This document shows positions 30,414-57,804 of a DNA stretch of 64,000 nt, one piece after another (within the stretch, counting starts at the first letter, position 1; each line of letters begins with the position of its first letter). This DNA is from an uncultured Candidatus Saccharibacteria bacterium. GTDB lineage: Bacteria; Patescibacteriota; Saccharimonadia; Saccharimonadales; UBA10212. The stretch is taken from assembly GCA_964624785.1 (NCBI GenBank), contig CAZUXR010000001.1, positions 213-64,212 of the forward strand, given 5' to 3'. The notes beneath the pieces were generated by a model. The model was not told where the DNA came from, did no database searches, and saw only the letters and a program-made list of their open reading frames with translations. A program made the position numbers and the translations under genes.

Positions 30414-30419
30414 CTATGA

Positions 30420-30790: not shown

Positions 30791-30803
30791 TCCTAAAACG
30801 TAC

Positions 30804-35396: not shown

Positions 35397-35400
35397 TAGT

Positions 35401-42349: not shown

Positions 42350-42398
42350 ATCTAATTATTATAACTATAAATGTTTAATATGGGGTAAAATTATACAA

Positions 42399-43655
42399 AT
42401 GGATAAAATTAAAACAGTTGCAATTCTTGGCCGGCAGAAGTCGCTGGGACTTGCCGAACTAGAAAGTCTTTATGGCGCGGAGCATGTGCGCTCCTTGGGC
42501 GACAACGCCGCTGTTTTAGATATTCCAGCCACGGAAATGGATTTTAGACGGCTTGGCGGCGCTGTAAAGCTTGCCCAGGTACTGGCCGAACTACCTACCA
42601 CCAACTGGCCGGACATGGTTAAGTTTTTGGGCGATAAAATTCCTGAGCATATTCAATACATGCCAGAAGGCACCTTTACACTTGGGGTAAGTGTTTATGG
42701 AATAGTGGTTAAGCTAGAAACCTTGAACAGAAATTTACTTGGAATCAAAAAAATTATTAAAGCTGCTGGCAAATCAACGCGAATTGTACCTAATAAATCG
42801 CTGGGACTTAACAGCGCCCAAGTCCTGCACAACAAACTCACAACCAAGGGTGGCTGGGAGCTAATATATATTCGCGATGGCGAGCACACCTTGCTGGCAC
42901 AAACTTTATTTATTCAAGATATCGAGGCCTACGCAGCGCGAGATCAAGCCCGTCCAAAACGCGATGCCCGAGTGGGAATGCTACCACCAAAGCTAGCGCA
43001 GATTATGGTCAACCTTGCCAGTGGCAAGGTCGGGTCACCAGTCACTAGTCACCAGTCGACAGTCACCGGACAAACGACTGGCGACCGACCACTAGTGACT
43101 AACAAGCCTTTGGTTTTGCTAGATCCATTTTGTGGCACCGGCGTAATCCTACAAGAAGCGCTATTAATGGGCTATACAGTCTATGGTACGGATGCGGAAC
43201 CGCGAATGATAGATTATACCAAAGCCAATTTAGACTGGCTTGATTTGCGTGGCGCCAGCAAAGAAGGGCGGATTGAACTAGAAGTAGGCGACGCTACAAA
43301 ACATCAATGGGCTCCACCCCCCAATCTTGTAGCCAGCGAAACATACCTAGGCCGGCCGTTCACTTCCCCGCCGCGACCCGAAATTTTAACCCAAAATATC
43401 AGCGACTGCAATGTAATAATTAAAAAGTTCTTGAGCAATATCCACTCGCAATTAGAAAGCGGGACAAGATTATGCCTGGCTGTGCCGGCTTGGCAAGTTC
43501 AGCCCGGGGTATTTAAGCACTTACCTCTTATTGACCAAGTTGGCAATCTGGGATATAATCGACTGAGCTTTGTTCATGTCAAAGATCAGGATTTGATCTA
43601 TTACAGACCAGACCAAATCGTTGGACGTGAACTAATCATATTAGCTAGAGTATAG
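42399..43655 (+). CDS. THUMP-like / UPF0020-type RNA (guanine-N2 or adenine-N6) methyltransferase
   Basis: Motif I LLDPFCGTGVIL preceded by PPKLAQIMVNLA. Start at the ATG at 42399; the upstream ORF extension overlaps the convergent 41294 gene. Confidence 0.7.
   Translation: MDKIKTVAILGRQKSLGLAELESLYGAEHVRSLGDNAAVLDIPATEMDFRRLGGAVKLAQVLAELPTTNWPDMVKFLGDKIPEHIQYMPEGTFTLGVSVYGIVVKLETLNRNLLGIKKIIKAAGKSTRIVPNKSLGLNSAQVLHNKLTTKGGWELIYIRDGEHTLLAQTLFIQDIEAYAARDQARPKRDARVGMLPPKLAQIMVNLASGKVGSPVTSHQSTVTGQTTGDRPLVTNKPLVLLDPFCGTGVILQEALLMGYTVYGTDAEPRMIDYTKANLDWLDLRGASKEGRIELEVGDATKHQWAPPPNLVASETYLGRPFTSPPRPEILTQNISDCNVIIKKFLSNIHSQLESGTRLCLAVPAWQVQPGVFKHLPLIDQVGNLGYNRLSFVHVKDQDLIYYRPDQIVGRELIILARV
43034..43103. 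repeat. in-frame heptanucleotide array inside the methyltransferase gene
   Basis: GTCACCA GTCACTA GTCACCA GTCGACA GTCACCG GACAAAC GACTGGC GACCGAC CACTAGT GACTAAC. It encodes SPVTSHQSTVTGQTTGDRPLVTN just before SAM motif I. Confidence 0.75.
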
Positions 43656-43671
43656 AAGGACAGATTAACAG

Positions 43672-43944
43672 ATGAGTAAAACCAAAGCAGGCGGTACCGC
43701 CAAAAATATCCACGACAGCCCCGGCCAACGACTGGGTGTTAAAGTATACGGCGGCCAAAAAGTTAAAACCGGCAATGTTATTGTTCGCCAAGTCGGTTTA
43801 ACTAAGCGCGCTGGTGCTGGTACCTTTTTAAGCCGAAATTACACAATCCACGCCGCAAAAGACGGCACCGTTAAATACGTTAAGCGCCGCGTTAAACACT
43901 TTAGCGGACGTTCAGTTCCTCGCACCGAAGTAACCGTTGAATAA
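43672..43944 (+). CDS. rpmA: 50S ribosomal protein L27
   Basis: KAGGTAKNIHDSPGQRLGVKVYGGQKV..GNVIVRQ.G matches the L27 signature. 90 aa. Confidence 0.9.
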   Translation: MSKTKAGGTAKNIHDSPGQRLGVKVYGGQKVKTGNVIVRQVGLTKRAGAGTFLSRNYTIHAAKDGTVKYVKRRVKHFSGRSVPRTEVTVE

Positions 43945-43950
43945 AAACTA

Positions 43951-44097
43951 GCTCTAAGCTAAGAGCCCAGAGCTTAGAGCGGGCTTCAAGGTTTATGGTT
44001 TGTAGTTTATGGTTTTTGGGCTAACGCCGAACGCTAGCTTTTTTCATTCTCTATTCTCAATTCTCTAATTCCTGCTCTTAAGCTAAGGACTCTTAGC
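43951..44097. repeat. phase-locked heptanucleotide mosaic, copy A
   Basis: 21 consecutive 7-mers in one register. The blocks are GCTCTAA GCTAAGA GCCCAGA GCTTAGA, then TTATGGT TTGTAGT TTATGGT TTTTGGG, then CTAACGC CGAACGC, then CTCTATT CTCAATT CTCTAAT, then CTTAAGC TAAGGAC TCTTAGC. The first block forms a 10-bp hairpin (43951-43980). Confidence 0.8.
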
Positions 44098-45707
44098 TAT
44101 AGTGCTGCTTTTATAAGGCCTAGGAACAACGGGTGGGCTCGGCCGGGTCGAGAGCGAAATTCCGGGTGAGCCTGAGTGGTTACAAAATACGGATGATCAA
44201 TGGCTTCTACCATTTCTACTAGCTGCCCGTCGGGCGATACGCCGGATTCTATAATTCCCCACGATTTATAATCCTTACGATAATCGTTATTGGCTTCGTA
44301 GCGGTGGCGATGACGCTCGATAATATTTTCGGCTCCGTAGAGTTTACGAGCCTTTGTTCCAGATTTGATTACGCAGGGATAATCGCCTAGGCGCATCGAC
44401 GCACCGGTGTTTTCTTTGCCTTTTTGATCTTCCATGGTGCTTACAACGGCGTGTTTAGGTTTAGGATCAAACTCTGTAGAATTAGCACCGGCTAAGCCCG
44501 CTCGGCGAGCAGCAGCAATGATCCCAACCTGCAGCCCCAGACAAATCCCTAGGTATGGCAATTTATTATCAAGAGCGAAGGCGGCGGCGGCAATTTTGCC
44601 CTCTACCCCGCGCCCACCAAATCCGCCAGGAACAATGATCCCGTCTAGGTCGGCCAAAACATTAACGGCTTTTTTGTCTTTTTCTAGGTCTTCGGCATTA
44701 ACCCATACAATATCTACATTGCATTCGTTAGCCCAGGCTGCGCTTCGCACCGCCTCGAATACAGACATATAGGTGTCTTGATTGTCGATATACTTAGCTA
44801 CCACGCCAATTCGTACGGTTTTGCGGTAATTAGCTAGTGCAGACTTAACCGTGCGCTCCCAGCTCTTCATATCGGGCTTATGAGCCTTTAGACCTAGGCG
44901 CTTAACGATAATATCGGCGATATTGGTGGACTCTAGAGTTAGCGGCACCTGATAGACAGTTTGAGCATTTGGCATCAGCACGATTGCTTCTTTGTCCACG
45001 CCACTAAATAGGCTTAGTTTGGGTATAACCGCTTTAGCTGGGGGCTTAGATTCGCTTCGGGCTGCCAGAACATCTGGCACAATGCCAAGTCCGCGAAGCT
45101 CACGGACAGAATTTTGCGCTGGCTTAGTTTTAAACTCACCACTGGCGCCCAGATATGGAATGTAAACAACGTGCACGAACATGCAGTTTTCTAGCCCAAC
45201 GCGCATGGACATTTCGCGGATGGCTTCTACAAAGCTCAATGATTCGTAATCGCCAACCGTGCCGCCAATTTCTGCGATGTGCACGTCAAAACCTTTGCCA
45301 GCACGCTCGATATACCCTTGGATGGCAGCAGTTAAGTGCGGAATAATTTGTACGTCTTCGCCTTTATATTTACCGGCGCGTTCGTCGCTGATAACTTTTT
45401 GCAGGACTTGCCCGCTCATCAAGCTGCTGCTTTGGGTCAGCTCCTCGTCTAAAAATCTTTCGTAGTGGCCAAGGTCCAAGTCTGTTTCTGCACCGTCTTT
45501 GGTTACAAAAACTTCGCCGTGTTCACGCGGATTTAACAGCCCAGCATCAACGTTTAGGTACGGGTCGCACTTTTGGATGTTAACGGATATTCCGCGGGCT
45601 TTTAAAATGGTGCCGATAGAAGCAGCCGTAATGCCTTTGCCAACGCCGGATAAAACCCCGCCGGTCACAAAAATATACTTAGTCTGCGGCTTAGTCCCTA
45701 GCGCCAT
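44097..45707 (-). CDS. pyrG: CTP synthase
   Basis: N-terminal KYIFVTGGVLSGVGKG, GATase domain GICLGLQ, and HPEF near the C-terminus. 536 aa. Confidence 0.95.
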   Translation of the reverse strand: MALGTKPQTKYIFVTGGVLSGVGKGITAASIGTILKARGISVNIQKCDPYLNVDAGLLNPREHGEVFVTKDGAETDLDLGHYERFLDEELTQSSSLMSGQVLQKVISDERAGKYKGEDVQIIPHLTAAIQGYIERAGKGFDVHIAEIGGTVGDYESLSFVEAIREMSMRVGLENCMFVHVVYIPYLGASGEFKTKPAQNSVRELRGLGIVPDVLAARSESKPPAKAVIPKLSLFSGVDKEAIVLMPNAQTVYQVPLTLESTNIADIIVKRLGLKAHKPDMKSWERTVKSALANYRKTVRIGVVAKYIDNQDTYMSVFEAVRSAAWANECNVDIVWVNAEDLEKDKKAVNVLADLDGIIVPGGFGGRGVEGKIAAAAFALDNKLPYLGICLGLQVGIIAAARRAGLAGANSTEFDPKPKHAVVSTMEDQKGKENTGASMRLGDYPCVIKSGTKARKLYGAENIIERHRHRYEANNDYRKDYKSWGIIESGVSPDGQLVEMVEAIDHPYFVTTQAHPEFRSRPGRAHPLFLGLIKAAL

Positions 45708-45869
45708 TTAGCCTCTGTTTTCTCCTACCCTGTCTCATAATTACTCCTGATATGCTACCACGGAAGTAGCGATGAGCCAATACCTTGAAGCCAAGACTCC
45801 TTGGTTGGTGGCTGAAAGGCCTGAAATTCATAATGCAGAGTTGAGAATGCGAAACTTCCGTCACCAACA

Positions 45870-45907
45870 AATCAAATAAAATAAGCGATCGCTTATTTTA
45901 TTTGATT
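45870..45907. repeat. 38-bp perfect palindrome with GCGATCGC core
   Basis: AATCAAATAAAATAAGCGATCGCTTATTTTATTTGATT lies between the S41 peptidase stop and the pyrG start. Confidence 0.9.
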
Positions 45908-45969
45908 CGTTTAATAGTTCAGGGTTCAGAGTTTTATGTTCTTGAACTTTAGCTTCTATAAACTCTCGG

Positions 45970-47229
45970 CTATGGGCTCTTAGTACCCTGCATTTTGCTG
46001 CGTAAAATTTCGTAAGCTTTGTCTTTTTGGGCGTCTTTGCCACTGGCTTGGCTATCTCCGTCGGCTGGTTTAACTTCCGTATCCGGCTTAATTCCCTGCT
46101 TATCTATGTTTTTGCCGCCCGGTGTATACCAATGAGCGATTGTGACTTTTATTTCGCTGCCATCTTTAAGATTTATTACCTGTTGAACACTGCCTTTGCC
46201 AAAGCTTTTTTCGCCAGCTAAGATTGCCGCGCCGTTGTCATGCAAAGCACCGGCTGTAATTTCGCTGGCGCTGGCGCTACCGCCATCAATCAAAACAACT
46301 GTTGGCAGTCCTTTCAAGGTGGCTTCGCCGTTAGAATATTCTGTTTGCGTAACTTTTCCACCATGTTTTTGGGCAACAACTGTTTTACCAGAATCAAACC
46401 ACAAGCTAGAAACATCCACAGCTCCGCTTAAATATCCGCCGGGGTTGCCACGCAGATCAAGCACGATGCCTTTAACGCCCTTCGCTTTGAATTCATCGGC
46501 GGCTTGGCGTGCCAACCTAACCGTGTCTCCGTTAAATTGGCTGATTTTTATATACCCTACATCCTCGTCAATTTGCCATTTTACGCTGGCAACTTCTATC
46601 TTTGCCCTGGTCAAAACTACGTCGAACGGTTGACCCGATCCGCGCACAATAGTAAGAGTTACTTTAGTATTTTCTGGACCACGTATTTTTTTAACTACCG
46701 CATCTATGCGCATCCCGCTGGTTGACTGGCCGTTTATTGCGGCAATTATATCCCTGGGTTTTAGTCCGGCTTTATCTGCCGGGTAGCCCGATAGCGGCGA
46801 AACGATAATGATATTATTGTCAGCATCGCTGCCAAGTTCCGCGCCGATTCCCGTAAAGCTACCGGATAGCTGATCGCCAAATTCCTGTGCTTCTTTAGGC
46901 GTAAAGTAGGTGGTGTAAGGGTCGCCGGTTGCCTCTACCAAACCGGTGTTTATGCCGTCCATAAGTTTATTTTTGTCTAGGTTACCATCAAAGTTCTTTT
47001 TTAAAATGCCATATAGCTGATCTGCAGATGAATAATCTAAGTGTTCAGAATTTGAAGTATCAAGCTGCTGAGTACTTAGCCCACTGACAGTAAGATTACC
47101 ATGCCCAGCCAAATAACCAATACTAAAAATACTAAACCCAGCCAGCAAAAATATCGCTCGCCTACCAAATAGCCCAAGCTTCTTGTGCCCTCGTCTTATT
47201 TTGTCTGTTTTTAGTTTATTTTTTAACAC
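45970..47229 (-). CDS. ctpA: S41-family C-terminal processing peptidase with PDZ domain
   Basis: PDZ region (VSPLSGYPADKAGLKPRDIIAAING) and catalytic region DLRGNPGGYL ... GGSASASEI ... FGKGSVQ. Confidence 0.85.
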   Translation of the reverse strand: MLKNKLKTDKIRRGHKKLGLFGRRAIFLLAGFSIFSIGYLAGHGNLTVSGLSTQQLDTSNSEHLDYSSADQLYGILKKNFDGNLDKNKLMDGINTGLVEATGDPYTTYFTPKEAQEFGDQLSGSFTGIGAELGSDADNNIIIVSPLSGYPADKAGLKPRDIIAAINGQSTSGMRIDAVVKKIRGPENTKVTLTIVRGSGQPFDVVLTRAKIEVASVKWQIDEDVGYIKISQFNGDTVRLARQAADEFKAKGVKGIVLDLRGNPGGYLSGAVDVSSLWFDSGKTVVAQKHGGKVTQTEYSNGEATLKGLPTVVLIDGGSASASEITAGALHDNGAAILAGEKSFGKGSVQQVINLKDGSEIKVTIAHWYTPGGKNIDKQGIKPDTEVKPADGDSQASGKDAQKDKAYEILRSKMQGTKSP

Positions 47230-47271
47230 AATACTCCCATTGTACTAGACTACGAACGGTTTAGTATCTTT

Positions 47272-48447
47272 TTAGAATTCGCGAGAAAGCGAGTGGAATT
47301 GGCCGTCAAGGTATGAATTATACTCGTAAGTTTGGAATGTATTACCGGACACACCTATTACGTACATTGCGTGTCCCCAATAACCGCCCGTACTAATTGC
47401 AACGTCGCCAGGTTGTGGCGTGCGAGAAACTTGAATCCCGCGCGCATAAGCAGCTCCTACCCAGTCAGCAGCATTACCCCAGTACATTGGTGCTGATCGG
47501 CCAGATGCAACTACTGCCCAAGCCGCAAACGACACGCATTGACGAGTACAGTAACCCCATTGATCCGGACCATCATTATTCACACAACCCCCAGGGCTCA
47601 TCCCAAAACCAGCGTTCTTGTATGGATAATTGCCAGGACTGATGCTGTTGATAGCTCCCGGGAACCGCAGGAAGTAATATCCTCCATCTGGACTAAAGTT
47701 AGCTTTGCGCTGCTGTGCAATCAGCGCATCTATTTTACTTTGGTTATCTTTGGTTTTTTGGTTATAGCTGGCTTGCTGGCTTTCGTTATACGAAAGCAGG
47801 TTATTCTGTTCGGCGCGACTGGCCTGTTGATTAGCTTGCTGCACTTTTTGCTGCGAAAGGAGCGCTTCTATCTGTTCCTTCTGCGTCTTTAGCTGAATCC
47901 TTAGAGCAGTAATTTTATCTACGGTATTTTTAATTTTGGTTTGAACAGAGTTGCGATATTCTTCTTTGTTCACATAATCACTGATGTTTTTGCTGCTGGC
48001 TAGCATCTCGAGCGTAGAGACTTTGCCCTCCAAATACATAGCTTTTATGTTTTCGCTCAAGACATTTTTTTGCTTGACCAATTCGGCCTCGGCCGCCGTT
48101 ATTTCCGCTTGCAACCGATTCTGCTCTGCGGTGTTAGCATCTATCTGAGCTTGCAGAGCGCTTATTGCCGCCTGCAATTTATTGATTGCATCCTGGTAGC
48201 TTGTAGCCTGATCTTCCAGCTGAGCGACAGTGTTTTGATTGGCGGCGTTTTCTTGCTGGAGAGCATTGATTTCATCGCTTATACTTGCCTTTGCATGGGG
48301 CGTTGCAAGCGTACCAAAAGCCAAAACAATAACAGAAGCAAGTACCAACACCTTTGTGGCGTGATTAGCAGAGCCTAAAATACTTTTTTTGAATTTTTGT
48401 TTTAGCATGAGCACTTTGATCATACCACCCCCGTACAGCCAATGCAA
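47272..48447 (-). CDS. PcsB-like secreted peptidoglycan hydrolase (N-terminal coiled coil, C-terminal CHAP domain)
   Basis: Long Q/A/L-rich coiled coil and the CHAP motifs QCVSFAAW ... GDVAI ... GHAMYV. It is adjacent to ftsX/ftsE. The start is ambiguous (M1, M9 or M14). Confidence 0.8.
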   Translation of the reverse strand: MHWLYGGGMIKVLMLKQKFKKSILGSANHATKVLVLASVIVLAFGTLATPHAKASISDEINALQQENAANQNTVAQLEDQATSYQDAINKLQAAISALQAQIDANTAEQNRLQAEITAAEAELVKQKNVLSENIKAMYLEGKVSTLEMLASSKNISDYVNKEEYRNSVQTKIKNTVDKITALRIQLKTQKEQIEALLSQQKVQQANQQASRAEQNNLLSYNESQQASYNQKTKDNQSKIDALIAQQRKANFSPDGGYYFLRFPGAINSISPGNYPYKNAGFGMSPGGCVNNDGPDQWGYCTRQCVSFAAWAVVASGRSAPMYWGNAADWVGAAYARGIQVSRTPQPGDVAISTGGYWGHAMYVIGVSGNTFQTYEYNSYLDGQFHSLSREF

Positions 48448-48504
48448 GCAGTATCCAGCACGGGCTCTATTATTAAATTTAAAGTATTTAGTTTGTTGTC
48501 CTTA

Positions 48505-49455
48505 CTATTTATGTAACTTTAGGTAGCGGCGGGTAGCAATACTGGAAGATGCCGCTCCTATCATTATACCAACAGCAACTTGGCTGCTAAGGATCAGCCA
48601 CATATGCTGTTTAAAGAAGTGGCTAGAATATCCAATATCAAGAAGGCCTAAGCTACTGGCCTGCAAGGTAGATGAAGCAACGGCAAACAGCGTTGCACAG
48701 ACGGCTAGCGACAAAGCTGCCGCCACCGCCCCGTAAAGCATTGTCTCTACAATAAACGGACCACGGATATATCCAGGCGTAGCACCAAGCAAACGCATAA
48801 TCACAAGCTCGTCGCGGCGATTGAATATGGTCATGCGAATAGTGTTAAAGATAATCAGCATAGATATAATTACAAAAACCACAATTCCCACTACTCCAGC
48901 TTCCTGAAAAAAGTGCGTTGCTTTGGTAATTTTGTCTATTGCCGCTTTACGGTCGCCAGAATAAGAAGTTGGATCGGACTGCAAAGCCAACACCGCCGGT
49001 TTGTCTAAAAAGTCTTTAATATCTTGCAGCTGGTTGGTATTGCGTGGCTGAATGTTAAGCGACGCCGGTAACGGGTTGCTTGTTTGCGATATCGCACTCA
49101 GCAATGCCGGGTTATTGGCGTTTTGCTGTTCGTATGCGGCAAGCGCTGCGGCCTTGCTTACATATTTGACCGATTTAACATTACCAACCCCCTTTAGCTG
49201 CTCGATAAGCTGGTCGCGCTGGCTATCTTTTATACCGTCTTTTAAATAAACCGACACGTCTATGTGACTAGTTATGTCGGCGATGGTGTGGTTAAAAGTC
49301 GCGTTCGCTACAATCGCGAACAGTAAAATCGTAAGGGTTATGCTCATCATGGCAATGGCGGCAATCGCTAGCCAAATGTTGCGCCAAAAGTTAACAAAAC
49401 CGTTCTTAACAATTCGCTCTAGGGTTATAAATCTGTGATCTTTGTCAGAACCCAT
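48505..49455 (-). CDS. ftsX: cell division ABC transporter permease-like protein FtsX
   Basis: 4 TM with a large first extracytoplasmic loop, downstream of ftsE. Confidence 0.85.
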   Translation of the reverse strand: MGSDKDHRFITLERIVKNGFVNFWRNIWLAIAAIAMMSITLTILLFAIVANATFNHTIADITSHIDVSVYLKDGIKDSQRDQLIEQLKGVGNVKSVKYVSKAAALAAYEQQNANNPALLSAISQTSNPLPASLNIQPRNTNQLQDIKDFLDKPAVLALQSDPTSYSGDRKAAIDKITKATHFFQEAGVVGIVVFVIISMLIIFNTIRMTIFNRRDELVIMRLLGATPGYIRGPFIVETMLYGAVAAALSLAVCATLFAVASSTLQASSLGLLDIGYSSHFFKQHMWLILSSQVAVGIMIGAASSSIATRRYLKLHK

Positions 49456-49497
49456 TTTAAATCCCCCTGCTATAACAAAAAACTACCCGGCACATAG

Positions 49498-50178
49498 TCA
49501 TGATTTGTATTTTCCAACTGCTTTATCGCTTACAATATGCCCGTCTTTTATGGTTACCACGCGGCGCTTTAGCGCATTAACAATCTCTTGATTGTGGGTG
49601 GTCAGCAGTACGGTGGTACCAAAGCGGTTAACTTTTTCTAGAACTTTTATAACGTCCCAGGCGTGCTTAGGGTCCAAGTTGCCGGTAGGTTCGTCGGCGA
49701 TCAGGATTTTGGGCTGGCGAACAATTGCCCTAGCGATCGCCACGCGCTGGCGCTCGCCGCCAGAAATTTCTAGCGGGTAGCTGTGTTCTTTACCCTTTAA
49801 CCCTACCAGATCAATTACTTTTGGCACTGTGTGTTTGATCTCTGCTGTTGGGATTCCGGCGATTTCTAGTGCGAAGGCTACGTTTTCGTAAACGGTTTTA
49901 TTAAGCAGCAACTTAAAGTCCTGGAACACCACGCCAATCTTGCGGCGCAATAACGGAATATCTTTGTCTTTTAGGTGTTCGTAGTCGATCCCGCCAACGA
50001 TTATTTTGCCGCTTGTGGGCTTTTCTTCCCTGGTGAGCAGTTTGAATAATGTAGACTTACCCGCCCCGGACTGGCCAACAATAATTACAAATTCCTTAGG
50101 CTCGACATGCAAAGAAATACGCTCTAGCGCTGGCCCTCTGTGGGTGTAACTCTTAGTCACTCTGTCGAGTAAAATCAT
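49498..50178 (-). CDS. ftsE: cell division ATP-binding protein FtsE
   Basis: Walker A GQSGAGKST, signature ISGGERQR and Walker B ILIADEPT. 226 aa. Confidence 0.9.
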   Translation of the reverse strand: MILLDRVTKSYTHRGPALERISLHVEPKEFVIIVGQSGAGKSTLFKLLTREEKPTSGKIIVGGIDYEHLKDKDIPLLRRKIGVVFQDFKLLLNKTVYENVAFALEIAGIPTAEIKHTVPKVIDLVGLKGKEHSYPLEISGGERQRVAIARAIVRQPKILIADEPTGNLDPKHAWDVIKVLEKVNRFGTTVLLTTHNQEIVNALKRRVVTIKDGHIVSDKAVGKYKS

Positions 50179-50179
50179 C

Positions 50180-50346
50180 AGGACTTACGCGCCATACCCT
50201 TCCAAGCCGGGCAAAGCACGCCATTGAATGCTATTTTTGACACAATAGTTAATTTTTGTCTGCGATACTCGCGCACCGTACCACTTGTACGCCTTGCTCC
50301 GTTTCTCGCCAAGAAATTCACTCTTGCGCTCAAACGCGTAAGTCCT
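50180..50346. repeat. 167-bp stem-closed module (12-bp perfect terminal inverted repeat)
   Basis: AGGACTTACGCG (50180-50191) pairs with CGCGTAAGTCCT (50335-50346). It encloses most of a doubtful 56-62-aa minus-strand ORF. Confidence 0.7.
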
Positions 50347-50387
50347 GTTAGCCATATGAACCCAGTATAACATGAGCGGTTTAGGCT

Positions 50388-50906
50388 TTATATTCTGGGT
50401 AGAGTAACGCCAGTTTTAAGAGACACTTCTTTTGCCCAACTGATCATAATGGCAAGTTTTTGCTCTAGCTCTAAAGATTCTTGAGCTTTAAGATTGGGAT
50501 GTCGTTTTTCTAGAGCAACTATCCGCATATAAATTTCTTTGATATCGCTTTCTACGCCCATCAGGCGATTGTCGATTTTTTCCATCCACTCGGCCATTTC
50601 CTGGTGCCCGCGCTCCAGGCTGGTCATTCGACCTTCCAGGCTTCCCATGCGCCCTTCTATATTTTCCATACGTCCATCAAGACTCTCAAAGCGCTGGTCA
50701 ATCTGCTCAAAACGCTGGTCAATCTGCTCAAAACGCTGGTCGACTTGCTCAAAACGTTTATCCATATTTATAGCCAAAGCACCGATCGATTCGGCAACAC
50801 TTGTAGCGAGATCACTGATCGACTCAGCAATATCGTTCACACTTGCCGTAAGAGTGCTTATCGACTTGGTAATGTCATCCTTATTTGTGCTTCCCGTAGT
50901 TGCCAT
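50388..50906 (-). CDS. coiled-coil protein with tandem 7-aa (21-nt) repeats
   Basis: FEQVDQR FEQIDQR FEQIDQR FESLDGR MENIEGR MGSLEGR MTSLERG. The underlying 21-nt tandem repeats span about 50620-50765. Confidence 0.6.
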   Translation of the reverse strand: MATTGSTNKDDITKSISTLTASVNDIAESISDLATSVAESIGALAINMDKRFEQVDQRFEQIDQRFEQIDQRFESLDGRMENIEGRMGSLEGRMTSLERGHQEMAEWMEKIDNRLMGVESDIKEIYMRIVALEKRHPNLKAQESLELEQKLAIMISWAKEVSLKTGVTLPRI

Positions 50907-51168
50907 AAATTAATTATACCTAAAAAACCTTAACAAGTTCTTTGTATTTATTACGTCAACTCGATTCGCTGTTTACAGCTTTTTTTGTTTTTGAATCATC
51001 TGTAGTCGAGTCAACGGGAGCTCGCCGTGCTTATTGCTTGATCGCGGTTGCGATCGAGCACGCACAGGCGAGTCCCGCCGGAGAGGTTTAATTTGGCTAA
51101 TCCTCTCTAAAAGCCACTTATCACGGTCGACGCTACTTCGCGAGATACTGTCTATGGTCCGAATCGAG

Positions 51169-51420
51169 TCAGTTACGCTCGAAGGTCATGACCTTGACCA
51201 GCCTTTCCCACGCGGTCGTACCTGGCCAGCGCTTACGCGAGTTCCAGATAACGATGTAGACGAGGTTGCCAATGAGTACCAGAATAGTACCCAAGTTGCT
51301 TACAGCCCACGCCGCATCACCATGTCCTACGGCAAACAGACAGGCCGCAGCAATGATGATGACGACGAGGGGGGCAACAACAGTCCAGCACGCCTTTACA
51401 AAATTCACCTTTATTTTCAC
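51169..51420 (-). CDS. hypothetical 83-aa membrane protein (2 TM) in GC-elevated islet 5
   Basis: Hydrophobic ORF. Hand counts are 37/60 (51181-51240), 27/60 (51241-51300) and 34/60 (51301-51360) G+C. GC-rich hairpins lie downstream at 51030-51110. Confidence 0.4.
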   Translation of the reverse strand: MKIKVNFVKACWTVVAPLVVIIIAAACLFAVGHGDAAWAVSNLGTILVLIGNLVYIVIWNSRKRWPGTTAWERLVKVMTFERN

Positions 51421-51492
51421 CTCCTCTTAGCTAGGCATAGCGAGTTTTGTAGTAATATTTATAACACAATGTTATAAATAGAGCAATTATAT

Positions 51493-52575
51493 TTAGATGT
51501 TGTGTTCGAGCCAGGATTCGATTAGGGGGTCTAGGTTGCCGTCTAGGACGGTTTGGGGGTCGGAAGTTTCGTAGCCGGTGCGCAGGTCTTTGACTTGTTT
51601 ATAGGGGTGTAAAACGTAGCTGCGGATCTGATTGCCCCACTCTGCCGATTGATTTGGGCCTTTAAGCTCACTCAACTTTTCGGCGTGCTGTTGCAGTTGC
51701 AAGGCCGCCAAGCGGGAGCGCAAAATCGTCATGGCTGTTTCTTTGTTTTGAACCTGAGAACGCTCGTTTTGAATACTTACCGTTAGGCCGGTTGGAACGT
51801 GCGTTATGCGCACAGCCGAGTCGGTGGTATTTACTGATTGGCCGCCGTGGCCGCCAGCACGATAAACGTCAACTTTAAGATCATTGTCATCAATTTCTAG
51901 CTCGCCAGGTTTGTCGATTTTTGGCATTACCTCTACCTTGGCAAAACTGGTTTGGCGCAGGTTGTCGGAATTATAAGGGCTCAACCGCACCAGGCGGTGC
52001 ACACCGTGCTCGCCCGCTAAACGGCCGTACAAAAAATTACCGCCGGAAAGTTCGAGTACAGCGCTTTTTATCCCGGCTTCTTCTCCAGAAGTTTGAGAAT
52101 CGGTTTGGACTTTTAGCCCGTGCTTTTCGGAGTAGCGAACATACATGCGCAGCAGCATAGCAGCCCAATCCTGAGCATCGGTGCCGCCCGCGCCGGCGTA
52201 AATTCCTAAAATTACATCGTGGTTGTCGTAGGGGCCACTAAAGCGAAGCTCGCGCTTAAGGGACGAGAATTGAGAATTGAGAATTGAGAATTTAGCTTCG
52301 AGTTCGGGCTCTAGGCTGGAATCATTTAGGCTAATTAATTCCGCTAGTTCGCGGGCGTCTTTTTGCAGGTTTTCCCAGGGTTGAATGCGAGAACTAAGCG
52401 CCGATTCTTGCTTACTTATATCCTGAGCCTTAGTGCTATCTTGCCAAAAATCCGGCTCCGCTATAGCAGTTCGCAAACCCGCTAATTCCGACTTTAGTTC
52501 ATCTAATTTTAGCTGAGCAACCGTCTGGGTAATGTCTTTATTAAGCTCACTAGCCCGCCTTTTAAGCTGTTCCAC
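51493..52575 (-). CDS. prfB: peptide chain release factor 2 (uninterrupted ORF, no programmed frameshift)
   Basis: GGQ motif (GGHGGQSVNTTDSAVRITH). The RF2-type recognition loop reads LVRLSPYNS (SPY at the SPF position). Confidence 0.9.
   Translation of the reverse strand: MEQLKRRASELNKDITQTVAQLKLDELKSELAGLRTAIAEPDFWQDSTKAQDISKQESALSSRIQPWENLQKDARELAELISLNDSSLEPELEAKFSILNSQFSSLKRELRFSGPYDNHDVILGIYAGAGGTDAQDWAAMLLRMYVRYSEKHGLKVQTDSQTSGEEAGIKSAVLELSGGNFLYGRLAGEHGVHRLVRLSPYNSDNLRQTSFAKVEVMPKIDKPGELEIDDNDLKVDVYRAGGHGGQSVNTTDSAVRITHVPTGLTVSIQNERSQVQNKETAMTILRSRLAALQLQQHAEKLSELKGPNQSAEWGNQIRSYVLHPYKQVKDLRTGYETSDPQTVLDGNLDPLIESWLEHNI
52265..52292. repeat. four perfect GAGAATT heptamers (AATTCTC on the coding strand) inside prfB
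   Basis: gagaatt occurs 4 times at 52265-52292 and encodes AKFSILNSQFS in RF2 domain 1. The same 7-mer occurs in the intergenic mosaics. Confidence 0.9.
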
Positions 52576-52663
52576 GCGGAACTCCTTCGGAGTTATTTAT
52601 CATTTGCCGCTGCGTATTTTTCATTAATTTCATCATCTATCATTTTACACTTGAACGATACTA

Positions 52664-52747
52664 GCGTACAGCGGCCAGGGGTTAGCGGACAGGAATTTCG
52701 GATCTGAACGCTAAACGCTATACGCAGTACGCTAGCCGGTTTATATA
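52664..52747. repeat. heptanucleotide mosaic, copy D (partial)
   Basis: GCGTACA GCGGCCA GGGGTTA GCGGACA ... GAACGCT AAACGCT ATACGCA GTACGCT AGCCGGT TTATATA. The AACGCTA block shares about 30 nt with copy B. Confidence 0.65.
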
Positions 52748-52831
52748 AACAGATACGAAGTTCTAAATCTCAAGGATTAACCCCCGAGCGCTAAAAAAAG
52801 CGCCCGGGGTAATCCCCACAGCAGCAAACCG

Positions 52832-53473
52832 CTACAGCAGCAAACCGGCGCGCTCAGCTCTTTTCTGGAGTCGGTTGAAGTGACCGAGCAGGATGCGCGC
52901 TTCTTCTGGGTCCACCATCGTCTGGTCGACGCTGTTGAGCCCGTCGAGTCCGCGACCCAGCTCAAGTAAACCTTTACGGATCAGCCCGAGGGTGATCTCT
53001 CTGCGGTGAGTATCGGCATACTCACGGTCGGAGCCTGACAGCATGCGGATGACCTCGTCGTGGATCTTGTTGGAGTCGGCATCGAAGTCGAGCAGGATGC
53101 GCGAGGCCACACCATCGTCCTCGCGCACCAGCCCGAGCAGGATGTGCTCGGTGCCGATGTAGTTGTGCCCCAGGGCCAGCGCCTCGCGAAACGCCAGCCC
53201 GAGGACCTTCTTGGCCCTCGGGGTGAACGGGATCTGCCAGAAGGTGACCTCCTCGCCGGAACCGACGGCTCGCACGATCTGGACGCGCACGCGCTCGACG
53301 GTGATGTCGAGGCTCTGAAGGACCCGCGCGGCCAGGCCTTCCTCCTCGCGGAGGAGCCCAAGCAGAATGTGCTCGGTGCCGATGTAGTTGTGCTTGAGGG
53401 TTCTGGCTTCTTCCTGCGCAAGCATGACCACTTGCCGCGCCCGTTCGGTATACCTTTCGAACAACTTTCTCAC
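52832..53473 (-). CDS. stand-alone Clp N-terminal (double Clp_N repeat) domain protein, ClpC1-NTD-like, in high-GC islet 6
   Basis: FERYTERARQVVMLAQEEARTLKHNYIGTEHILLGLL ... IPFTPRAKKVLGLAFREALALGHNYIGTEHILLGLV closely parallels the actinobacterial ClpC1 N-terminus. There is no AAA+ module. The likely true start is the TTG at 53464, preceded by AGGTGA, giving MFERY... nt 53101-53160 hand count is 41/60 G+C. Confidence 0.8.
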   Translation of the reverse strand: MRKLFERYTERARQVVMLAQEEARTLKHNYIGTEHILLGLLREEEGLAARVLQSLDITVERVRVQIVRAVGSGEEVTFWQIPFTPRAKKVLGLAFREALALGHNYIGTEHILLGLVREDDGVASRILLDFDADSNKIHDEVIRMLSGSDREYADTHRREITLGLIRKGLLELGRGLDGLNSVDQTMVDPEEARILLGHFNRLQKRAERAGLLL

Positions 53474-53645
53474 CTGTCTTTCGCTAGTCTTGCTTGTAGG
53501 GATTTTTGAGGATTTTAACTAAACGCAAAATACACGTTTGATCAAAAAGAACCTCATATCTATTTATAAAAAGTGCTAAAACCCCGATAAACCTCGAAGG
53601 CAATAGCTATATTATAAAACAGCCATCAGCAAAAAGCAAAGATCC

Positions 53646-53799
53646 GGCTTTGAGTTATGGTTTGTAGTTTATGGTTTATGGGCTAACCCTGAACACTAAA
53701 CGCTATCCGCTGTACGCTTTTCTTCATTCTCAATTCCCCATTCTGAATTCTAAATTCCTGGTATTTAAGCTCTGGGCTCTCAGCTCTTAGCTTCCCAGA
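53646..53799. repeat. phase-locked heptanucleotide mosaic, copy B
   Basis: 22 consecutive 7-mers in one register. The blocks are AGTTATG GTTTGTA GTTTATG GTTTATG, then GGCTAAC CCTGAAC ACTAAAC GCTATCC GCTGTAC GCTTTTC, then TTCATTC TCAATTC CCCATTC TGAATTC TAAATTC, then TTAAGCT CTGGGCT CTCAGCT CTTAGCT. It overlaps the last codons of the M16 gene. Confidence 0.8.
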
Positions 53800-55075
53800 G
53801 GGGTTGGATAGTTTCGTTCAGCTTATCCGTCAAAGCGCGAGTTTTACTATCACCCAGCAGCCCTAACCCGCCAATTCCATCACTAAACATGCGCTCCGAT
53901 GCCCGCACAATACGGCTTTTAGTTATGGCTTTAATGCGTTTTGGAATAGCGTCGTAATCGTCGATTACATTATCAAAGTAGTAGCGGCTAGAGTAGCCGG
54001 ACATAATTCCGCCAACAGTCTGGCCACTGCGCTGGTAGCGCCCTAATAGGTACTGCTTTGCGGCCTCTAAATCTTCTTCGCTGATTTCCCCTGCCCGCAC
54101 GCGGTTGACCTCACGGACGATGATTTCAAACAGCGGCAAAGCGTTTTTAGGAATCACCTGCGCGCCAAACCACCATACCGAACTGTCTTTTGTGGTGTCT
54201 AAATTAGAGCTCATGGAATAAACCAGTCCGCGCTCGCGGGCTTCGCCCAAAATACGTGAATTTAGAGTAGCAGTTAGCATAGTGTTGACCAGCCCAAGCG
54301 CGTCCCATTCCGAGTCCGAAAAGCGATGATTAGCAAACGCGTCAATATAAAAATGCGTAGTATTAACAGATGGGCGCGACACAAAAACGGGCTTTGGTGG
54401 AGCACTCGGAAGTTCTGATGGTAACTCAATTCGCTCGCGGCCTTTTGGTAGTCCGATATTTTCTAGCAGTTGTTTGATTTGGCTGGTGCGCCCCCGCAAA
54501 TTACCGGCAATTATAAACCGCATATTGCGGGTAGTGTGGGTGTTTTTGTAATGCTCTACAACATCTTTTAGCTTAACGTTTTTCATTAGTTTTAGGCATT
54601 CGCGGTCGGTCATGGCCAGCAGCCCATAAGCCTGACGAGTCACAGCATGCAAGTGCAAAAAGTGGTTGTTTGCCCGAGCCGCACGCTCGTCTTTCACGTT
54701 ACCAAATTCGGCCTTAAATTCGTCGCGCAAAAAAAGCGGCTTGCTAATTGCGGTAAGCATTAGCTCTAGCACGCGTTGCCACTCAAAGTCGGCGGCTTCG
54801 GCTTCGTAGGTTACATGATATGTGCTGGTGTGTGCATTAGAATACGCACCGTTTTTTTCGAACTCTGCCTGAAACGCCCGCGCTTTTGGATATTGCTTAT
54901 TAGCGCCAAGCAGTACATGTTCCATTAAATGCGGAGCTTCCCATTTGTCTTTTGGTACCAGGTATTCGCCCGCTCTAAAGTTAAATTCATAATCCATAAC
55001 AGTGGCGCCAGGCACATCGATCAAAATACCTTTTGCGCCATTTTTTAGTTCAATCTCGGTTGCGGTGTGCTTCAT
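53780..55075 (-). CDS. M16-family (pitrilysin/insulinase-like) zinc peptidase
   Basis: Inverted zinc motif HLMEH (HxxEH) near the N-terminus. 431 aa with two-lobed M16 architecture. Confidence 0.85.
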   Translation of the reverse strand: MKHTATEIELKNGAKGILIDVPGATVMDYEFNFRAGEYLVPKDKWEAPHLMEHVLLGANKQYPKARAFQAEFEKNGAYSNAHTSTYHVTYEAEAADFEWQRVLELMLTAISKPLFLRDEFKAEFGNVKDERAARANNHFLHLHAVTRQAYGLLAMTDRECLKLMKNVKLKDVVEHYKNTHTTRNMRFIIAGNLRGRTSQIKQLLENIGLPKGRERIELPSELPSAPPKPVFVSRPSVNTTHFYIDAFANHRFSDSEWDALGLVNTMLTATLNSRILGEARERGLVYSMSSNLDTTKDSSVWWFGAQVIPKNALPLFEIIVREVNRVRAGEISEEDLEAAKQYLLGRYQRSGQTVGGIMSGYSSRYYFDNVIDDYDAIPKRIKAITKSRIVRASERMFSDGIGGLGLLGDSKTRALTDKLNETIQPLWEAKS

Positions 55076-55131
55076 GGAATTAGAATCTCGAATTTGGATT
55101 ATGGAATTTGGAATTAAGATTTATCGAATTT
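55076..55131. repeat. heptanucleotide array, copy C (GAATNNN block)
   Basis: GGAATTA GAATCTC GAATTTG GATTATG GAATTTG GAATTAA GATTTAT CGAATTT fills the M16-secA intergenic gap. It is the reverse-complement type of the NNNATTC block of copy B. Confidence 0.75.
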
Positions 55132-55146
55132 TTCAAAATATGTCCT

Positions 55147-57804
55147 TTATTTCTTACGTCGACCTTTAGTTTTGCGTTTGCGTTCGGCTTTGCGGGCTTT
55201 TTTGCGCTGCGCTTTTACCCGAGCTTCTTTGGCCTGCTCTTCGCGCTCCGGGGTAAAATCGGTTTCGTGGAACTCCTCGGCGGCTAGAATTTTACTGGCG
55301 TTATCTACCGATCCGCGGGCCGCGCGAGTCAGGTCGGTTTCTACTGGGCGATTTAGCGATGACTCGTCCACTGGCTGGGCGCTCATGATTGCGCGAACAA
55401 TTTCTTGGCGCAGAATCATTTGCATATCGTCAAACAATCGTTGGCCCTGGCGGCGATATTCTACCAACGGATCGCGCTGACCAACACTAATCCAGTGAAT
55501 TCCTTCGCGCAAGTGATCCATGTTCTCTAGGTGTTGCATCCATAAGTTATCCAAAACTTGCAAGTAAATATCGCGTTCTACTTTGCGCATAACTTCCGCG
55601 CCAAAGAGCTTTTCGCGACTCTTATACAGCTTTACAGCTGATTCGCTCAGCAAACCTTTAAACTTGTCGGTTTCGGCATCAAACAAAGTGTCTAGAGTCT
55701 TGTCGGTTAGCGGGAAGACTTCTGTTAAGATCGACTCGTAATTTTCGCTCGTGGATTCTGAATGGTTAGCTAGCGCTTCTGCCTCTTCCTGGATAAGTTT
55801 TTTGATTCGAGGGGCGATGTCGTCGCTTGTTAGAATCTCGCGGCGCATGGCGTAAATGGCGCGGCGGTGACGGTTCATTACGTCGTCGTATTGCACCACG
55901 TTTTTGCGAGTATCAAAGTTAAAGCCTTCGACCTTCTTCTGTGCGCCTTCTAGGGCTTTGCTTATCCGGCGACTTTCTAGCGGAGTTTGCTCATCTACCT
56001 TTAGAAGATTCATCAGCGAGGCAATTTTTTCGCCGCCGTAAATACGCATTAGATCATCCTCTGTACTTACATAGAATTGAGTTTTGCCTGGGTCCCCCTG
56101 GCGACCGGCGCGCCCGCGGAGCTGGTTGTCTATGCGGCGCGATTCATGTCGTTCGCTTCCTAGTACAAACAGTCCGCCCAGATCTTTGATCCCATTGCCT
56201 AGCACAATGTCCGTTCCGCGTCCGGCAATGTTGGTAGCCAATGTTACCGCGCCTTTTTCACCGGCTTTAGCTACAATCGAGGCTTCTTTTTCGTTATTTT
56301 TGGCGTTTAAAATTTCGTGCGGAATCCCGGCTTTTTTAAGCAGTCCAGAAAGTAGTTCGTTGCGCTCAATACTCACCGTACCAATCAAAACCGGCTGGCC
56401 TTTTTTGTGAAGATCCTGGACTTCTTTGGCTATGGCGTTAAACTTGCCTGTCTCGCTCTTGTAAATTCGGTCTGGCAAGTCTTGGCGGACCAGTTTGCGG
56501 TTTGATGGGACCTCTACCACGCTAAGTTTATAGACCTGGTGGAATTCTTCTTCTTCGGTCAAAGCCGTACCAGTCATACCGCCAAGCTTGTTATACAAAC
56601 GAAAGTAGTTTTGGAAGCTGATAGACGCTAGAGTCATAGATTCTTCTTGGACCTCTACGCCTTCTTTGGCTTCGATTGCCTGGTGCAGGCCTTCGTTATA
56701 ACGCCGGCCTTTAAGCAAGCGCCCAGTAAAGTCATCAACGATTACGATTTCGCCGTCTTTAGTGACCACGTAATCTTTGTCGCGCTTGAACAAAACTTCA
56801 CCCTTAAGCGCTTGTTCTAGGTGATAAATAGTGCGTAAGTTTTCGGTTGCGTACAAACTTTTTATTCCTAGGATTTTTTCTACCAGCTCTACGCCGTCGT
56901 CGGTTAGAATCACGCTGCGGCGTTTTTCATCTTTTTCGTAGTGGTCGGTCTCTTTTAACGAACGCACGACCTTGGCAAATTGCTGGTAAGCCGCACCGCT
57001 GGCAGTTGCCGGAGCGCTGATAATTAGCGGTGTGCGGGCTTCGTCAATTAGGATTGAGTCGACTTCGTCTACGATGGCGTAGTGTAAGTCGCGCTGGCGC
57101 AGCTGGTCTACTTCGCGGACCATGTTGTCGCGCAAGTAATCAAAGCCGAATTCGTTGTTGGTTCCGTAAGTAATATCGGCGGCGTAAGCGTCCTGACGAC
57201 TAGCTGGGCGCAAATGCTTCATTCGTTCGTCGTAATGGTCTTTGTTTTGATAATCCAGATCGAAAACAAAAGACTGGTCTGGAATAATTACCCCGACACT
57301 AAGTCCTAAGAAGTTATAAACTTGCGCCATCCAGCCGGCATCACGCTGCGCTAGGTAATCGTTAACTGTTACAACATGTACACCTTTGCCTTCCAAGGCG
57401 TTTAAATAAACCGGCAGTGTGGCAACCAGGGTTTTACCTTCTCCGGTCTTCATCTCTGCTACGTTGCCTTCATGCAGCACCATACCACCGATTAATTGCA
57501 CATCAAAGTGACGCTGTTTTAGAGCGCGGCTTGCGGCCTCGCGCACTACGGCGAACGCATCTGGCAAAAGTGAATCTAACTTTGCGCCATCCGCTAAACG
57601 CTTTTTAAGAATATTTGTCTGATCCTTGAGCTTAGCGTCGGTCATGACCTTGTATTTTTGCTCGAGCGCGTTGACCTGTTTTACCCGCTTGCGCATTCGC
57701 TTAATAGTAGCTACTTGCGGATCACCCAGGACACGCTTTACCGCTTTTTTACCAACTTTTCCTACAGATATTTTCAAAAAAATCCCTCTTCCAAGACCCA
57801 CCAA
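55147..57804 (-). CDS. secA: preprotein translocase ATPase SecA
   Basis: 885 aa with DEAD-like motor motifs (MKTGEGKTLV, IVDEVDSILIDEARTPLIIS, TNIAGRGTDI). The exact start is uncertain. Confidence 0.95.
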   Translation of the reverse strand: MVGLGRGIFLKISVGKVGKKAVKRVLGDPQVATIKRMRKRVKQVNALEQKYKVMTDAKLKDQTNILKKRLADGAKLDSLLPDAFAVVREAASRALKQRHFDVQLIGGMVLHEGNVAEMKTGEGKTLVATLPVYLNALEGKGVHVVTVNDYLAQRDAGWMAQVYNFLGLSVGVIIPDQSFVFDLDYQNKDHYDERMKHLRPASRQDAYAADITYGTNNEFGFDYLRDNMVREVDQLRQRDLHYAIVDEVDSILIDEARTPLIISAPATASGAAYQQFAKVVRSLKETDHYEKDEKRRSVILTDDGVELVEKILGIKSLYATENLRTIYHLEQALKGEVLFKRDKDYVVTKDGEIVIVDDFTGRLLKGRRYNEGLHQAIEAKEGVEVQEESMTLASISFQNYFRLYNKLGGMTGTALTEEEEFHQVYKLSVVEVPSNRKLVRQDLPDRIYKSETGKFNAIAKEVQDLHKKGQPVLIGTVSIERNELLSGLLKKAGIPHEILNAKNNEKEASIVAKAGEKGAVTLATNIAGRGTDIVLGNGIKDLGGLFVLGSERHESRRIDNQLRGRAGRQGDPGKTQFYVSTEDDLMRIYGGEKIASLMNLLKVDEQTPLESRRISKALEGAQKKVEGFNFDTRKNVVQYDDVMNRHRRAIYAMRREILTSDDIAPRIKKLIQEEAEALANHSESTSENYESILTEVFPLTDKTLDTLFDAETDKFKGLLSESAVKLYKSREKLFGAEVMRKVERDIYLQVLDNLWMQHLENMDHLREGIHWISVGQRDPLVEYRRQGQRLFDDMQMILRQEIVRAIMSAQPVDESSLNRPVETDLTRAARGSVDNASKILAAEEFHETDFTPEREEQAKEARVKAQRKKARKAERKRKTKGRRKK

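Follow-up and report, generated by a model that had tools for sequence, protein, structure and literature searches.

Heptanucleotide repeat arrays at gene boundaries and inside genes of a Saccharibacteria contig

Short arrays of tandem heptanucleotides were found between, at the ends of and inside genes in DNA of an uncultured Candidatus Saccharibacteria bacterium (assembly GCA_964624785.1, contig CAZUXR010000001.1, positions 213 to 64,212 of the forward strand). This stretch of 64,000 nt, referred to below as the window, holds eight such arrays, two within genes and the other six in spacers or where genes end. We interpret them, with a probability of roughly 0.6, as slippage-prone heptanucleotide DNA resembling the short tandemly repeated repetitive (STRR) sequences of cyanobacteria, which spreads from locus to locus, is tolerated at the junctions and ends of genes as well as in protein loops, and has no conserved function. 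Heptamer repeats of this general kind are already known from bacteria, where they are widespread and poorly understood. Of particular interest are the clear evidence of a recent gain, the rewriting of gene ends and of a segment of the RF2 gene, the link to a freshly acquired host-like gene, and the occurrence in several lineages of the Candidate Phyla Radiation (CPR).

The periodicity was assessed by a scan of the window in which 42-nt frames with a lag-7 self-match of at least 55% were merged into regions. Seven regions were obtained (30404-30471, 43014-43101, 43950-44073, 52240-52324, 52684-52743, 53628-53792 and 55066-55136), against a mean of 0.3 and a maximum of 2 in fifty first-order Markov shuffles. 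Periods 5, 6, 8, 9, 10 and 11 gave 0-3 regions each, such that period 7 alone is enriched, and the period-7 rows of Tandem Repeats Finder (TRF) coincide with the sites of the seven regions. Among the ~38 spacers of at least 40 nt, raised lag-7 identity was confined to those at 30.4, 43.9, 45.7, 52.6, 53.5 and 55.1 kb, together with a short one at 48.4 kb. An earlier sequence-only reading of this DNA, which had proposed a scan of this type against shuffled controls, had listed further arrays comparable to its reference copy at 53646-53799. For most of these period 7 is indeed significant, but neither 45915-45985 nor the right two thirds of 30420-30580 passes unaided, and both were recognised only through homology to the composite copies A and B described next.

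Three of the arrays, designated copies A, B and C, are homologous composites of about 150 nt that align over their full length in the same block order. A direct heptamer cut of 53646-53799 reproduces the 22 7-mers and the four blocks previously described there, of the GTTTATG, GCTNNAC (equivalently CTAAACG), NNNATTC and CTNNGCT types; this segment matches itself at fractions of 0.58, 0.53 and 0.44 for lags of 7, 14 and 21 nt, and of ~0.25 for other lags. Copy B (53620-53799, plus strand) starts further left than 53646, at about 53620, with a decayed inverted version of its right-hand block. Its layout comprises this inverted block 4' (53620-53654), block 1 of GTTTATG type (53655-53688), block 2 of CTAAACG type (53689-53723), block 3 of ATTCNNN type (53724-53760) and block 4 of CTNNGCT type (53761-53799). 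Copy A (43950-44099, plus strand) occupies the entire spacer between the convergent L27 (plus strand) and pyrG (minus strand) genes and runs from an inverted block 4' through blocks 1, 2, 3 and 4. Its two block-4 arms (27 nt, 85% complementary; repeat family I12) pair as a long hairpin; the corresponding arm is decayed in copy B, and copy C has none. Copy C (30415-30575, plus strand; nhmmer E 1e-29) is more degenerate: its block 1 passes the period-7 test (30404-30471), and its right part aligns with blocks 3-4 of the other two copies.

A profile built from the three copies recovers each of them (E 7e-35, 1e-29 and 6e-24), and no further full-length composite was found with it among the fetched sequences, the nearest matches being partial. 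Across a 44-nt stretch spanning blocks 1 and 2 (family D2), copy A matches copy B at 91% identity. The mean identity of the three copies is 66%, with differences that include whole units. Individual blocks are also found apart from the composites. Block 2 reappears as a hairpin-forming inverted pair at 52663-52747 (plus strand; arms 52663-52693 and 52704-52733; families I9 and D15), whose second arm, 52704-52733, forms a 30-nt direct repeat of 90% identity with 53689-53718 in copy B (D15). Block 3 reappears in inverted orientation within the RF2 gene (I4, I13). The I4 homology of this RF2 patch extends into block 4. The extension is due in part to ...ELK... codons native to RF2 and supports copying only weakly. 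The view that the arrays form one family, with blocks reused in both orientations, is accordingly upheld by the homology of copies A, B and C and by repeat families D2, D15, I4, I9, I12 and I13.

Within each block, all occurrences of the diagnostic motif share one phase, and copies A and B agree in the offset between blocks 1 and 2. In the phase of blocks 1-2 against blocks 3-4, however, these two copies are shifted by 3 nt. The shift arises through a 25-nt indel, by which the paralogous copies also come to differ in unit number (about six block 2 units in copy B versus two in copy A). The constant phase over about 150 bp to which the sequence-only reading had drawn attention therefore holds for copy B as written but is not a conserved property, and the register between blocks of unlike sequence has no independent meaning.

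The host assignment rests on the M16 gene beside copy B, whose homologues are found in metagenome-assembled genomes (MAGs) of Saccharibacteria/Saccharimonadales (best match 70% identity among species representatives), in agreement with the CPR-like character attributed to this genome from its letters. The relatives in the protein collection show ~80% identity (closest M16 ~81%), and exact-protein look-ups of the M16 and L27 proteins of the window returned no other contig. The window and three relatives (L025, L027 and L030) have a common gene order, namely SecA, M16, RF2, FtsE, FtsX, a CHAP-domain protein, an S41 protease, pyrG and the convergent L27. No true heptamer arrays were found in 24 species-level relatives over 393 kb around the same genes; period-7 matches in two of them (L011 and L021) were rejected as A/T-rich low complexity.

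At the junctions themselves the differences are pronounced. The SecA-M16 spacer, which measures 2 nt in L030 and 10 nt in L025, is 71 nt long in the window and consists almost entirely of an array of GGAATTN/GAATTTG type (55076-55131, plus strand). The pyrG-L27 spacer, 3 nt in L030, comprises 152 nt in the window, all of it array, and the 13-nt overlap of the M16 and RF2 genes in the relatives contrasts with an insertion of ~1.2 kb. Because the orthologous junctions of relatives at ~80% identity consist of 2-10 nt spacers or overlapping genes, the arrays are recent gains specific to the lineage of the window, which is the outcome of the comparison of orthologous spacers that had been suggested as a check for gain and loss. 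One array in L025 (AGCTCTN x5) is of the same unit type as block 4; the phenomenon is therefore present in the wider clade, and the AGCTCTN array belongs to a sister genome, GCA_037975565.1. Two pairs of relatives (L025 and L026, L027 and L028) are identical and carry no information on polymorphism. Several spacers of L025, L027 and L030 (for example L027 18530-18679 and 15369-15605; L025 19086-19259) carry a different small hairpin repeat, CCGTATTTAAATACGG-like. Since the relatives possess this repeat rather than heptamer arrays, the small-repeat content of spacers is lineage-specific in these Saccharibacteria.

The arrays have altered the ends of several proteins. On the minus strand, the last codons and the stop (53780-53782) of the M16 gene are encoded by block 4 of copy B, and the protein ends in ...PLWEAKS, compared with ...PLWKS, ...PLWNK or ...PLWSS in the relatives. 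The S41 protease ends in ...SKMQGTKSP instead of ...SKIQ, the terminal GTKSP and the stop having been added by a degenerate array at the gene end (45915-45985, plus strand) that includes the block-4' motif ACTAAGAGCCCATAGCC. In the DUF167-like open reading frame (ORF) at 30554-30937 (minus strand) the last codons and stop (...RISL) lie within copy C. These three gene ends had already been described as written in repeat sequence. The pyrG array had been thought merely to touch the stop codon, and this does not hold: the right end of copy A provides both the last codon and the stop (...KAAL versus ...KAAKK in the relatives). The new terminal residues and stops of M16, S41 and pyrG all derive from one shared motif; GCTAAGAGCCCAGAGCT has 5 matches with up to 3 mismatches, against 0.11 expected. 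The notion that block 4' supplies a stop in all three frames was rejected, as stops are present in two frames only.

Two arrays lie inside genes, and comparison with orthologues bears out the proposed invasion of coding sequence both here and at the gene ends. In the RF2 gene (51493-52575, minus strand), the array at 52265-52320 (minus strand) carries AATTCTC four times without mismatch, read on the sense strand (52265-52292), and after these units degenerate ones. The array exchanges the ancestral ...KIEEEFEE... for ...FSILNSQFSS... (~10 codons) in an alignment without gaps. The tripeptide of RF2 concerned with stop-codon recognition (residues ~199-201) reads SPY in the window and SPF in three close relatives. 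The second array, of GTCACCA/GACNNNC type (43034-43103, plus strand), is situated in a PF01170-type methyltransferase ORF (42168-43655), where it represents a 26-residue insertion relative to L027, in the loop preceding the LLDPFCGTG motif. The AGCTCTN x5 array of L025 (17 residues) occupies the same loop site, and the more distant Saccharibacteria-like contig L135 has GAGCCAA x4 in that loop and CTACAAA x4 in a second variable loop. Neither loop array is present in L027. The unrelated heptamers in the window, L025 and L135 would fit independent generation at a permissive site.

The insertion between M16 and RF2 contains a foreign gene of high GC content, bracketed by the arrays at 52663-52747 and 53620-53799, which share the 30-nt direct repeat D15. 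Its ORF (52832-53473, within a segment at 52785-53473, minus strand) is intact and encodes 213 residues with two Clp_N repeats (Pfam). The GC content is 62%, and that of third codon positions (GC3) is 81%, versus ~49% GC3 in the neighbouring genes. At the protein level it is 85-88% identical to the ClpC N-domain or stand-alone Clp_N proteins of Gaiellaceae and Solirubrobacteraceae MAGs, and at the nucleotide level 84% identical over 430 nt to one Thermoleophilia-type gene, the match beginning at the start codon of that gene. The high-GC segment (~52785-53465) is set off from the arrays by A/T-rich DNA without a match among the fetched sequences. The ORF has its own hairpin, and the contig resumes exactly at the syntenic neighbour RF2, the start region of which is duplicated; the overlap of M16 stop and RF2 start is apparently present on both sides of the insert. 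Since the two flanking arrays bracket a freshly acquired gene, they can be dated as recent. Either they formed at the insertion junctions, or the Clp_N gene landed inside a pre-existing array, and the donor may point to the host lineage of this Saccharibacterium. In the actinobacterial contig nearest the donor (L271, 3001-5579), ClpC is called as two overlapping ORFs, one for its Clp_N domain (195 aa) and one for its AAA+ body (664 aa), an arrangement that could explain the transfer of a complete gene for the N-domain only.

Similar arrays occur well outside this lineage. A degenerate three-unit pattern of block 1 matched at least 120 loci in metagenome contigs and at least 120 in viral contigs. 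Many of the short metagenome matches were disregarded as telomere-like satellites (AAACCCT) of probable eukaryotic origin. In the longer contigs of bacteria, several more period-7 arrays with other units were usually present, and period 7 was again the sole enriched period. Taxon names for the contigs were derived from clusters at 90% identity, for L129 from a GyrB search and for L135 from gene order in common with the window. Contigs with arrays from the CPR were those of Wolfebacteria (L048), Roizmanbacteria (L056), a Gribaldobacteria-like organism (L129) and the Saccharibacteria-like organism mentioned above (L135). Those of the Bacteroidota or related groups were assigned to Gillisia (L035), Flavobacterium (L082, L083), Chitinophagaceae (L047, L074), Bacteroidales (L141) and Kapabacteria (L046). 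Several of the arrays in L129 and L056 fall within long ORFs. In L072 a GGTTTGT array is followed by a CYNGRCT array, in a layout resembling blocks 1 to 4 (profile match E 3e-4). A peptide ...YKLQTTNYKL..., encoded by (ACTACAA)n, occurs both in the methyltransferase of L135 (3893-5143) and near the C-terminus of the Roizmanbacteria asparagine synthase of L056 (6672-9419, 915 aa), which also has NFKSQISNPKFKSQS and SPKSVKSIRSIKSQ stretches. Literature searches for Saccharibacteria or CPR gave no paper linking STRR or heptamer repeats to either, in line with the sequence-only reading, which was aware of no description of such repeats in Patescibacteria. Heptamer arrays are nevertheless not the cyanobacterial speciality implied there: they are reported from Xanthomonas and Geobacter (PMC4692102, PMC2700814), and were found here in Bacteroidota, in viral contigs and in three CPR lineages besides Saccharibacteria.

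According to the interpretation favoured here, units would be gained, lost and homogenised in steps of 7 nt by strand slippage or unequal exchange, and local amplification of mutated variant units would give rise to the block mosaic. Now and then, ectopic recombination, template switching or some other mobilisation would place copies of whole segments at other loci, in either orientation. The arrays would persist only where selection permits, that is in junction spacers, in the last few codons of genes, where the array supplies a new stop, and in permissive surface loops or variable helices; individual copies may incidentally serve as hairpins or terminators. Slippage as the generator is suggested by the perfect register within blocks, the four perfect units in RF2 and the difference of about six versus two units in block 2 of copies B and A. 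Copying between loci is indicated by the common block order of copies A, B and C, the 91% identity over 44 nt, the 30-nt direct repeat of 90% identity and the inverted copies. Neutrality is likewise inferred, in that the lack of a common fold, the lack of an Rfam match and the absence of arrays from close relatives together argue against a conserved role. An active generating mechanism had also been envisaged, and a recent gain in this lineage fits an active process, but nothing points to a special templated synthesis with a 7-nt step. The ~50 window ORFs scanned with Pfam are either housekeeping genes (the dcw cluster, pyrimidine synthesis, tRNA synthetases, RecO, ExoVII and a PIF1 helicase) or without a Pfam match, and no reverse transcriptase, transposase, RAYT-like protein (a transposase type associated with repetitive extragenic palindromes) or unusual polymerase or primase was found among them.

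Several observations weigh against this interpretation. The 17-nt block-4' motif is always sense-oriented and located at, or no more than 14 nt from, the stop codon in four genes, a clustering that could reflect a role at the 3' ends of mRNAs or a preference in insertion. All three full composite copies share one orientation. The patch in RF2 entails no net length change, which simple +7/-7 slippage in an essential gene explains poorly. Copy A and the inverted pair at 52663-52747 form long hairpins (z -3.9, -2.8 and -3.8 relative to shuffles, the pair at -3.8). Five AsnB proteins of Roizmanbacteria (mean 98% identity) with array-encoded peptides display no length variation. Finally, certain units recur across distant contigs, namely GTTTRTR, GGAATTT/GGATTTN, AGCTYTT (AGCTTTT), and AAACGCT beside CATAAAC. 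The recurrence of similar heptamers in distant lineages is not predicted by purely random seeding; it constitutes a lead only, because the contigs were picked through one of these units.

The composites might alternatively be copies of a non-autonomous element resembling miniature inverted-repeat transposable elements (MITEs) or repetitive extragenic palindromes (REPs), about 150 nt long, with inverted block-4 ends, moved by an enzyme encoded elsewhere with a preference for gene 3' ends. The heptamer periodicity would then be merely the internal make-up of the element. In favour of such an element are the three homologous copies, alike in block order and orientation, the inverted ends of copy A (with a decayed left arm in copy B), the four or five gene stops in or beside the terminal motif, and the absence of copies at orthologous sites of the relatives. 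Direct reading of the flanks, however, revealed no target-site duplication at copies A, B or C, the only duplication being the M16-stop/RF2-start overlap around the entire 1.2-kb insert, and neither a transposase nor a RAYT-like protein is encoded by the scanned ORFs. Moreover, copies that are on average 66% identical and differ by whole units, and the many arrays that are partial or single blocks in either orientation, fit such an element poorly, and the unrelated heptamers found in one methyltransferase loop in three lineages are better accommodated by generation in place. Mobilisation of this kind therefore seems unlikely.

A functional role in cis is improbable, whether as a terminator or 3'-stabilising hairpin, as a site of intercistronic processing or as a multivalent platform bound by a protein with a 7-nt reading step. 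Such a role draws on the folding of copy A and the 52663-52747 pair, far better than that of shuffles, on the left arm of copy A, which together with a T-run is the best terminator-like site in 43000-56000, on the orientation of the block-4' motif at gene stops, and on the related heptamers of distant lineages. Elsewhere this does not hold: no folding beyond that of shuffles was seen in copy B (z +0.7) or copy C (z -1.2), in the SecA-M16 array (z +1.2 to +1.8) or along the gene-end segments on the sense strand (z -1.5 to +0.2), and only one of the eight arrays is terminator-like. A conserved 3' hairpin was rejected on the basis of the gene-end segments, and membership in the class of intrinsic terminators was discarded too, the left arm of copy A being the sole qualifying site. 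No Rfam match reached the gathering score in the window, and none was obtained at E <= 0.1 in 43900-55200. The lack of a common fold and of an Rfam match therefore argues against one structured RNA, so that the known structured RNA or terminator family by which the arrays might have been explained away was not found. In addition, the arrays are missing from the same operon in relatives of 80% identity, and some of them are located inside coding sequence.

A more far-reaching proposition, which we regard as a long shot, is that a DNA-level process in CPR and some other phyla writes 7-nt arrays at gene boundaries and in protein loops, and creates fragile or recombinogenic sites for the integration of host genes. 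If true, this process would overwrite sequence without a change in length, as in RF2, and would have integrated a Thermoleophilia-type Clp_N gene into the genome of a streamlined episymbiont; the shared heptamer repertoire would then reflect a sequence preference of the process, or of a protein that binds the arrays. An artefact of assembly or chimerism in a metagenome-assembled contig is hardly credible: the assembly is a single one, the proteins looked up are on no other contig and a high-GC actinobacterial segment lies between repeats, but the arrays form imperfect mosaics and not collapsed runs of one repeat, the reading frames of RF2 and the methyltransferase stay open, the foreign ORF is intact with its own hairpin, the contig returns exactly to the syntenic RF2, and similar arrays are seen in separate, independent assemblies from other Saccharibacteria and CPR.

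Apart from the arrays, the window contains several other small elements. Directly upstream of ftsE, in the ftsEX-CHAP operon, lies a conserved element of ~180 nt (50179-50350, minus strand, in the window; 10225-10410 in L030; 12410-12597 in L025). RNAalifold predicted 60 pairs in the three sequences, 12 of them kept through changes on both sides, and no Rfam match was obtained for the element, which may be a leader RNA or riboswitch that has escaped annotation; the ORF of 62 aa at 50185-50373 is probably spurious. A perfect or near-perfect palindrome of 34 nt, TCAAATAAAATAAGCGATCGCTTATTTTATTTGA, is present three times (35367-35400, 35978-36011 and 45872-45905). Two of the copies flank a gene for a PaaX-like regulator (35401-35985) and one lies in the S41-pyrG spacer; the palindrome looks like an operator or terminator. 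The mraW gene is surrounded by a pair of ~140-nt repeats (8431-8569 and 9703-9841; 80-89% identical), each with an inverted motif, CCCCGCACCTGAAACTGC / GCAGTTTCAGGTGCGGGG, which are another small dispersed hairpin element. A coiled-coil-like ORF (50388-50906, minus strand), absent from the RF2-ftsE spacer of the relatives, contains 21-nt tandem repeats at 50614-50756 (3.4 copies at 92% and 2.1 copies at 78%), and the ORF at 51034-51477 (plus strand) has no Pfam match.

Since CPR genomes are small and tightly packed, new spacers, altered C-termini and loops added to housekeeping proteins contribute visibly to their evolution, and all three effects are found within a 25-kb part of the window. 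At least four CPR lineages and many Bacteroidota possess arrays, which means that the STRR puzzle is not a cyanobacterial curiosity, and it could be studied comparatively, for example against the repair and replication genes of each lineage. For annotation, repeats should be considered as a possible source of loop insertions and of the ends of ORFs in such genomes.

In cyanobacteria, the consensus units of STRR1-3, described by Mazel and co-workers in 1990, are reportedly CCCCAGT, TTGGTCA and CAACAGT; no tandem array of any of the three was found in the window. The likeness to these sequences, on which the sequence-only reading had relied, is correct as to form: in both cases 7-nt units are joined head to tail in many dispersed, mainly intergenic arrays, with several unit types per genome and no assigned function. 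The window arrays differ in belonging to Saccharibacteria, in their units, in the joining of short blocks (4-6 units) into a composite that is itself dispersed, and in that several of them overlap gene ends or sit in frame inside genes.

REPs and bacterial interspersed mosaic elements (BIMEs) are small dispersed elements located just past stop codons or between convergent genes, BIMEs being mosaics in both orientations, and Rickettsia palindromic elements (RPEs) occur in frame within protein-coding genes. By description, the window arrays resemble them in their stop-proximal and convergent sites, their two-orientation mosaics and their in-frame copies. These elements, however, are single imperfect palindromes, in contrast to the tandem 7-nt units of the window, which are mostly not palindromic, and no RAYT-type transposase was seen there.

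Further counterparts are the intergenic heptamer arrays of Xanthomonas (GGGAATC) and Nostoc (GGGGAYT) reported by Rehm et al. in 2015 (PMC4692102). Work cited in that paper found heptameric repeats to be over-represented among bacterial simple sequence repeats (SSRs), described three tandem heptanucleotides in Calothrix PCC 7601, and proposed that 7 nt matches the DNA segment held by the polymerase and that polymerase slippage favours 7-nt units. Like the arrays of the window, the Xanthomonas and Nostoc SSRs are intergenic heptamers, some in convergent, hairpin-capable inverted pairs, and they show extensive variation in length and sequence between close relatives (PMC4692102). Their units are G-rich and quadruplex-forming, whereas those of the window are A/T-rich without G-runs, and they are located between the same genes in related species, unlike the window arrays, which are absent at the orthologous sites of relatives with 80% identity. 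Geobacter metallireducens possesses fourfold arrays of GGGACCG at 49 sites and fivefold arrays of MTYCTGA at 15, between and within genes (PMC2700814). These families are similar in their short heptamer arrays (4-5 units) and dispersed sites, but each consists of a single unit in fixed copy number and is annotated as putatively regulatory, in contrast to a mosaic with variable unit numbers. The tandem repeats of Borgs (PMC9879509) are likewise recent, fast-evolving, both intergenic and genic, and add new, probably disordered peptide segments; they reside in a different kind of replicon, and the window unit is 7 nt. As 7 is not a multiple of three, a coding heptamer array repeats its peptide only every three units (21 nt). 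By formal definition, the arrays of the window are STRR-like, with units other than those of the STRRs and in a host other than theirs.

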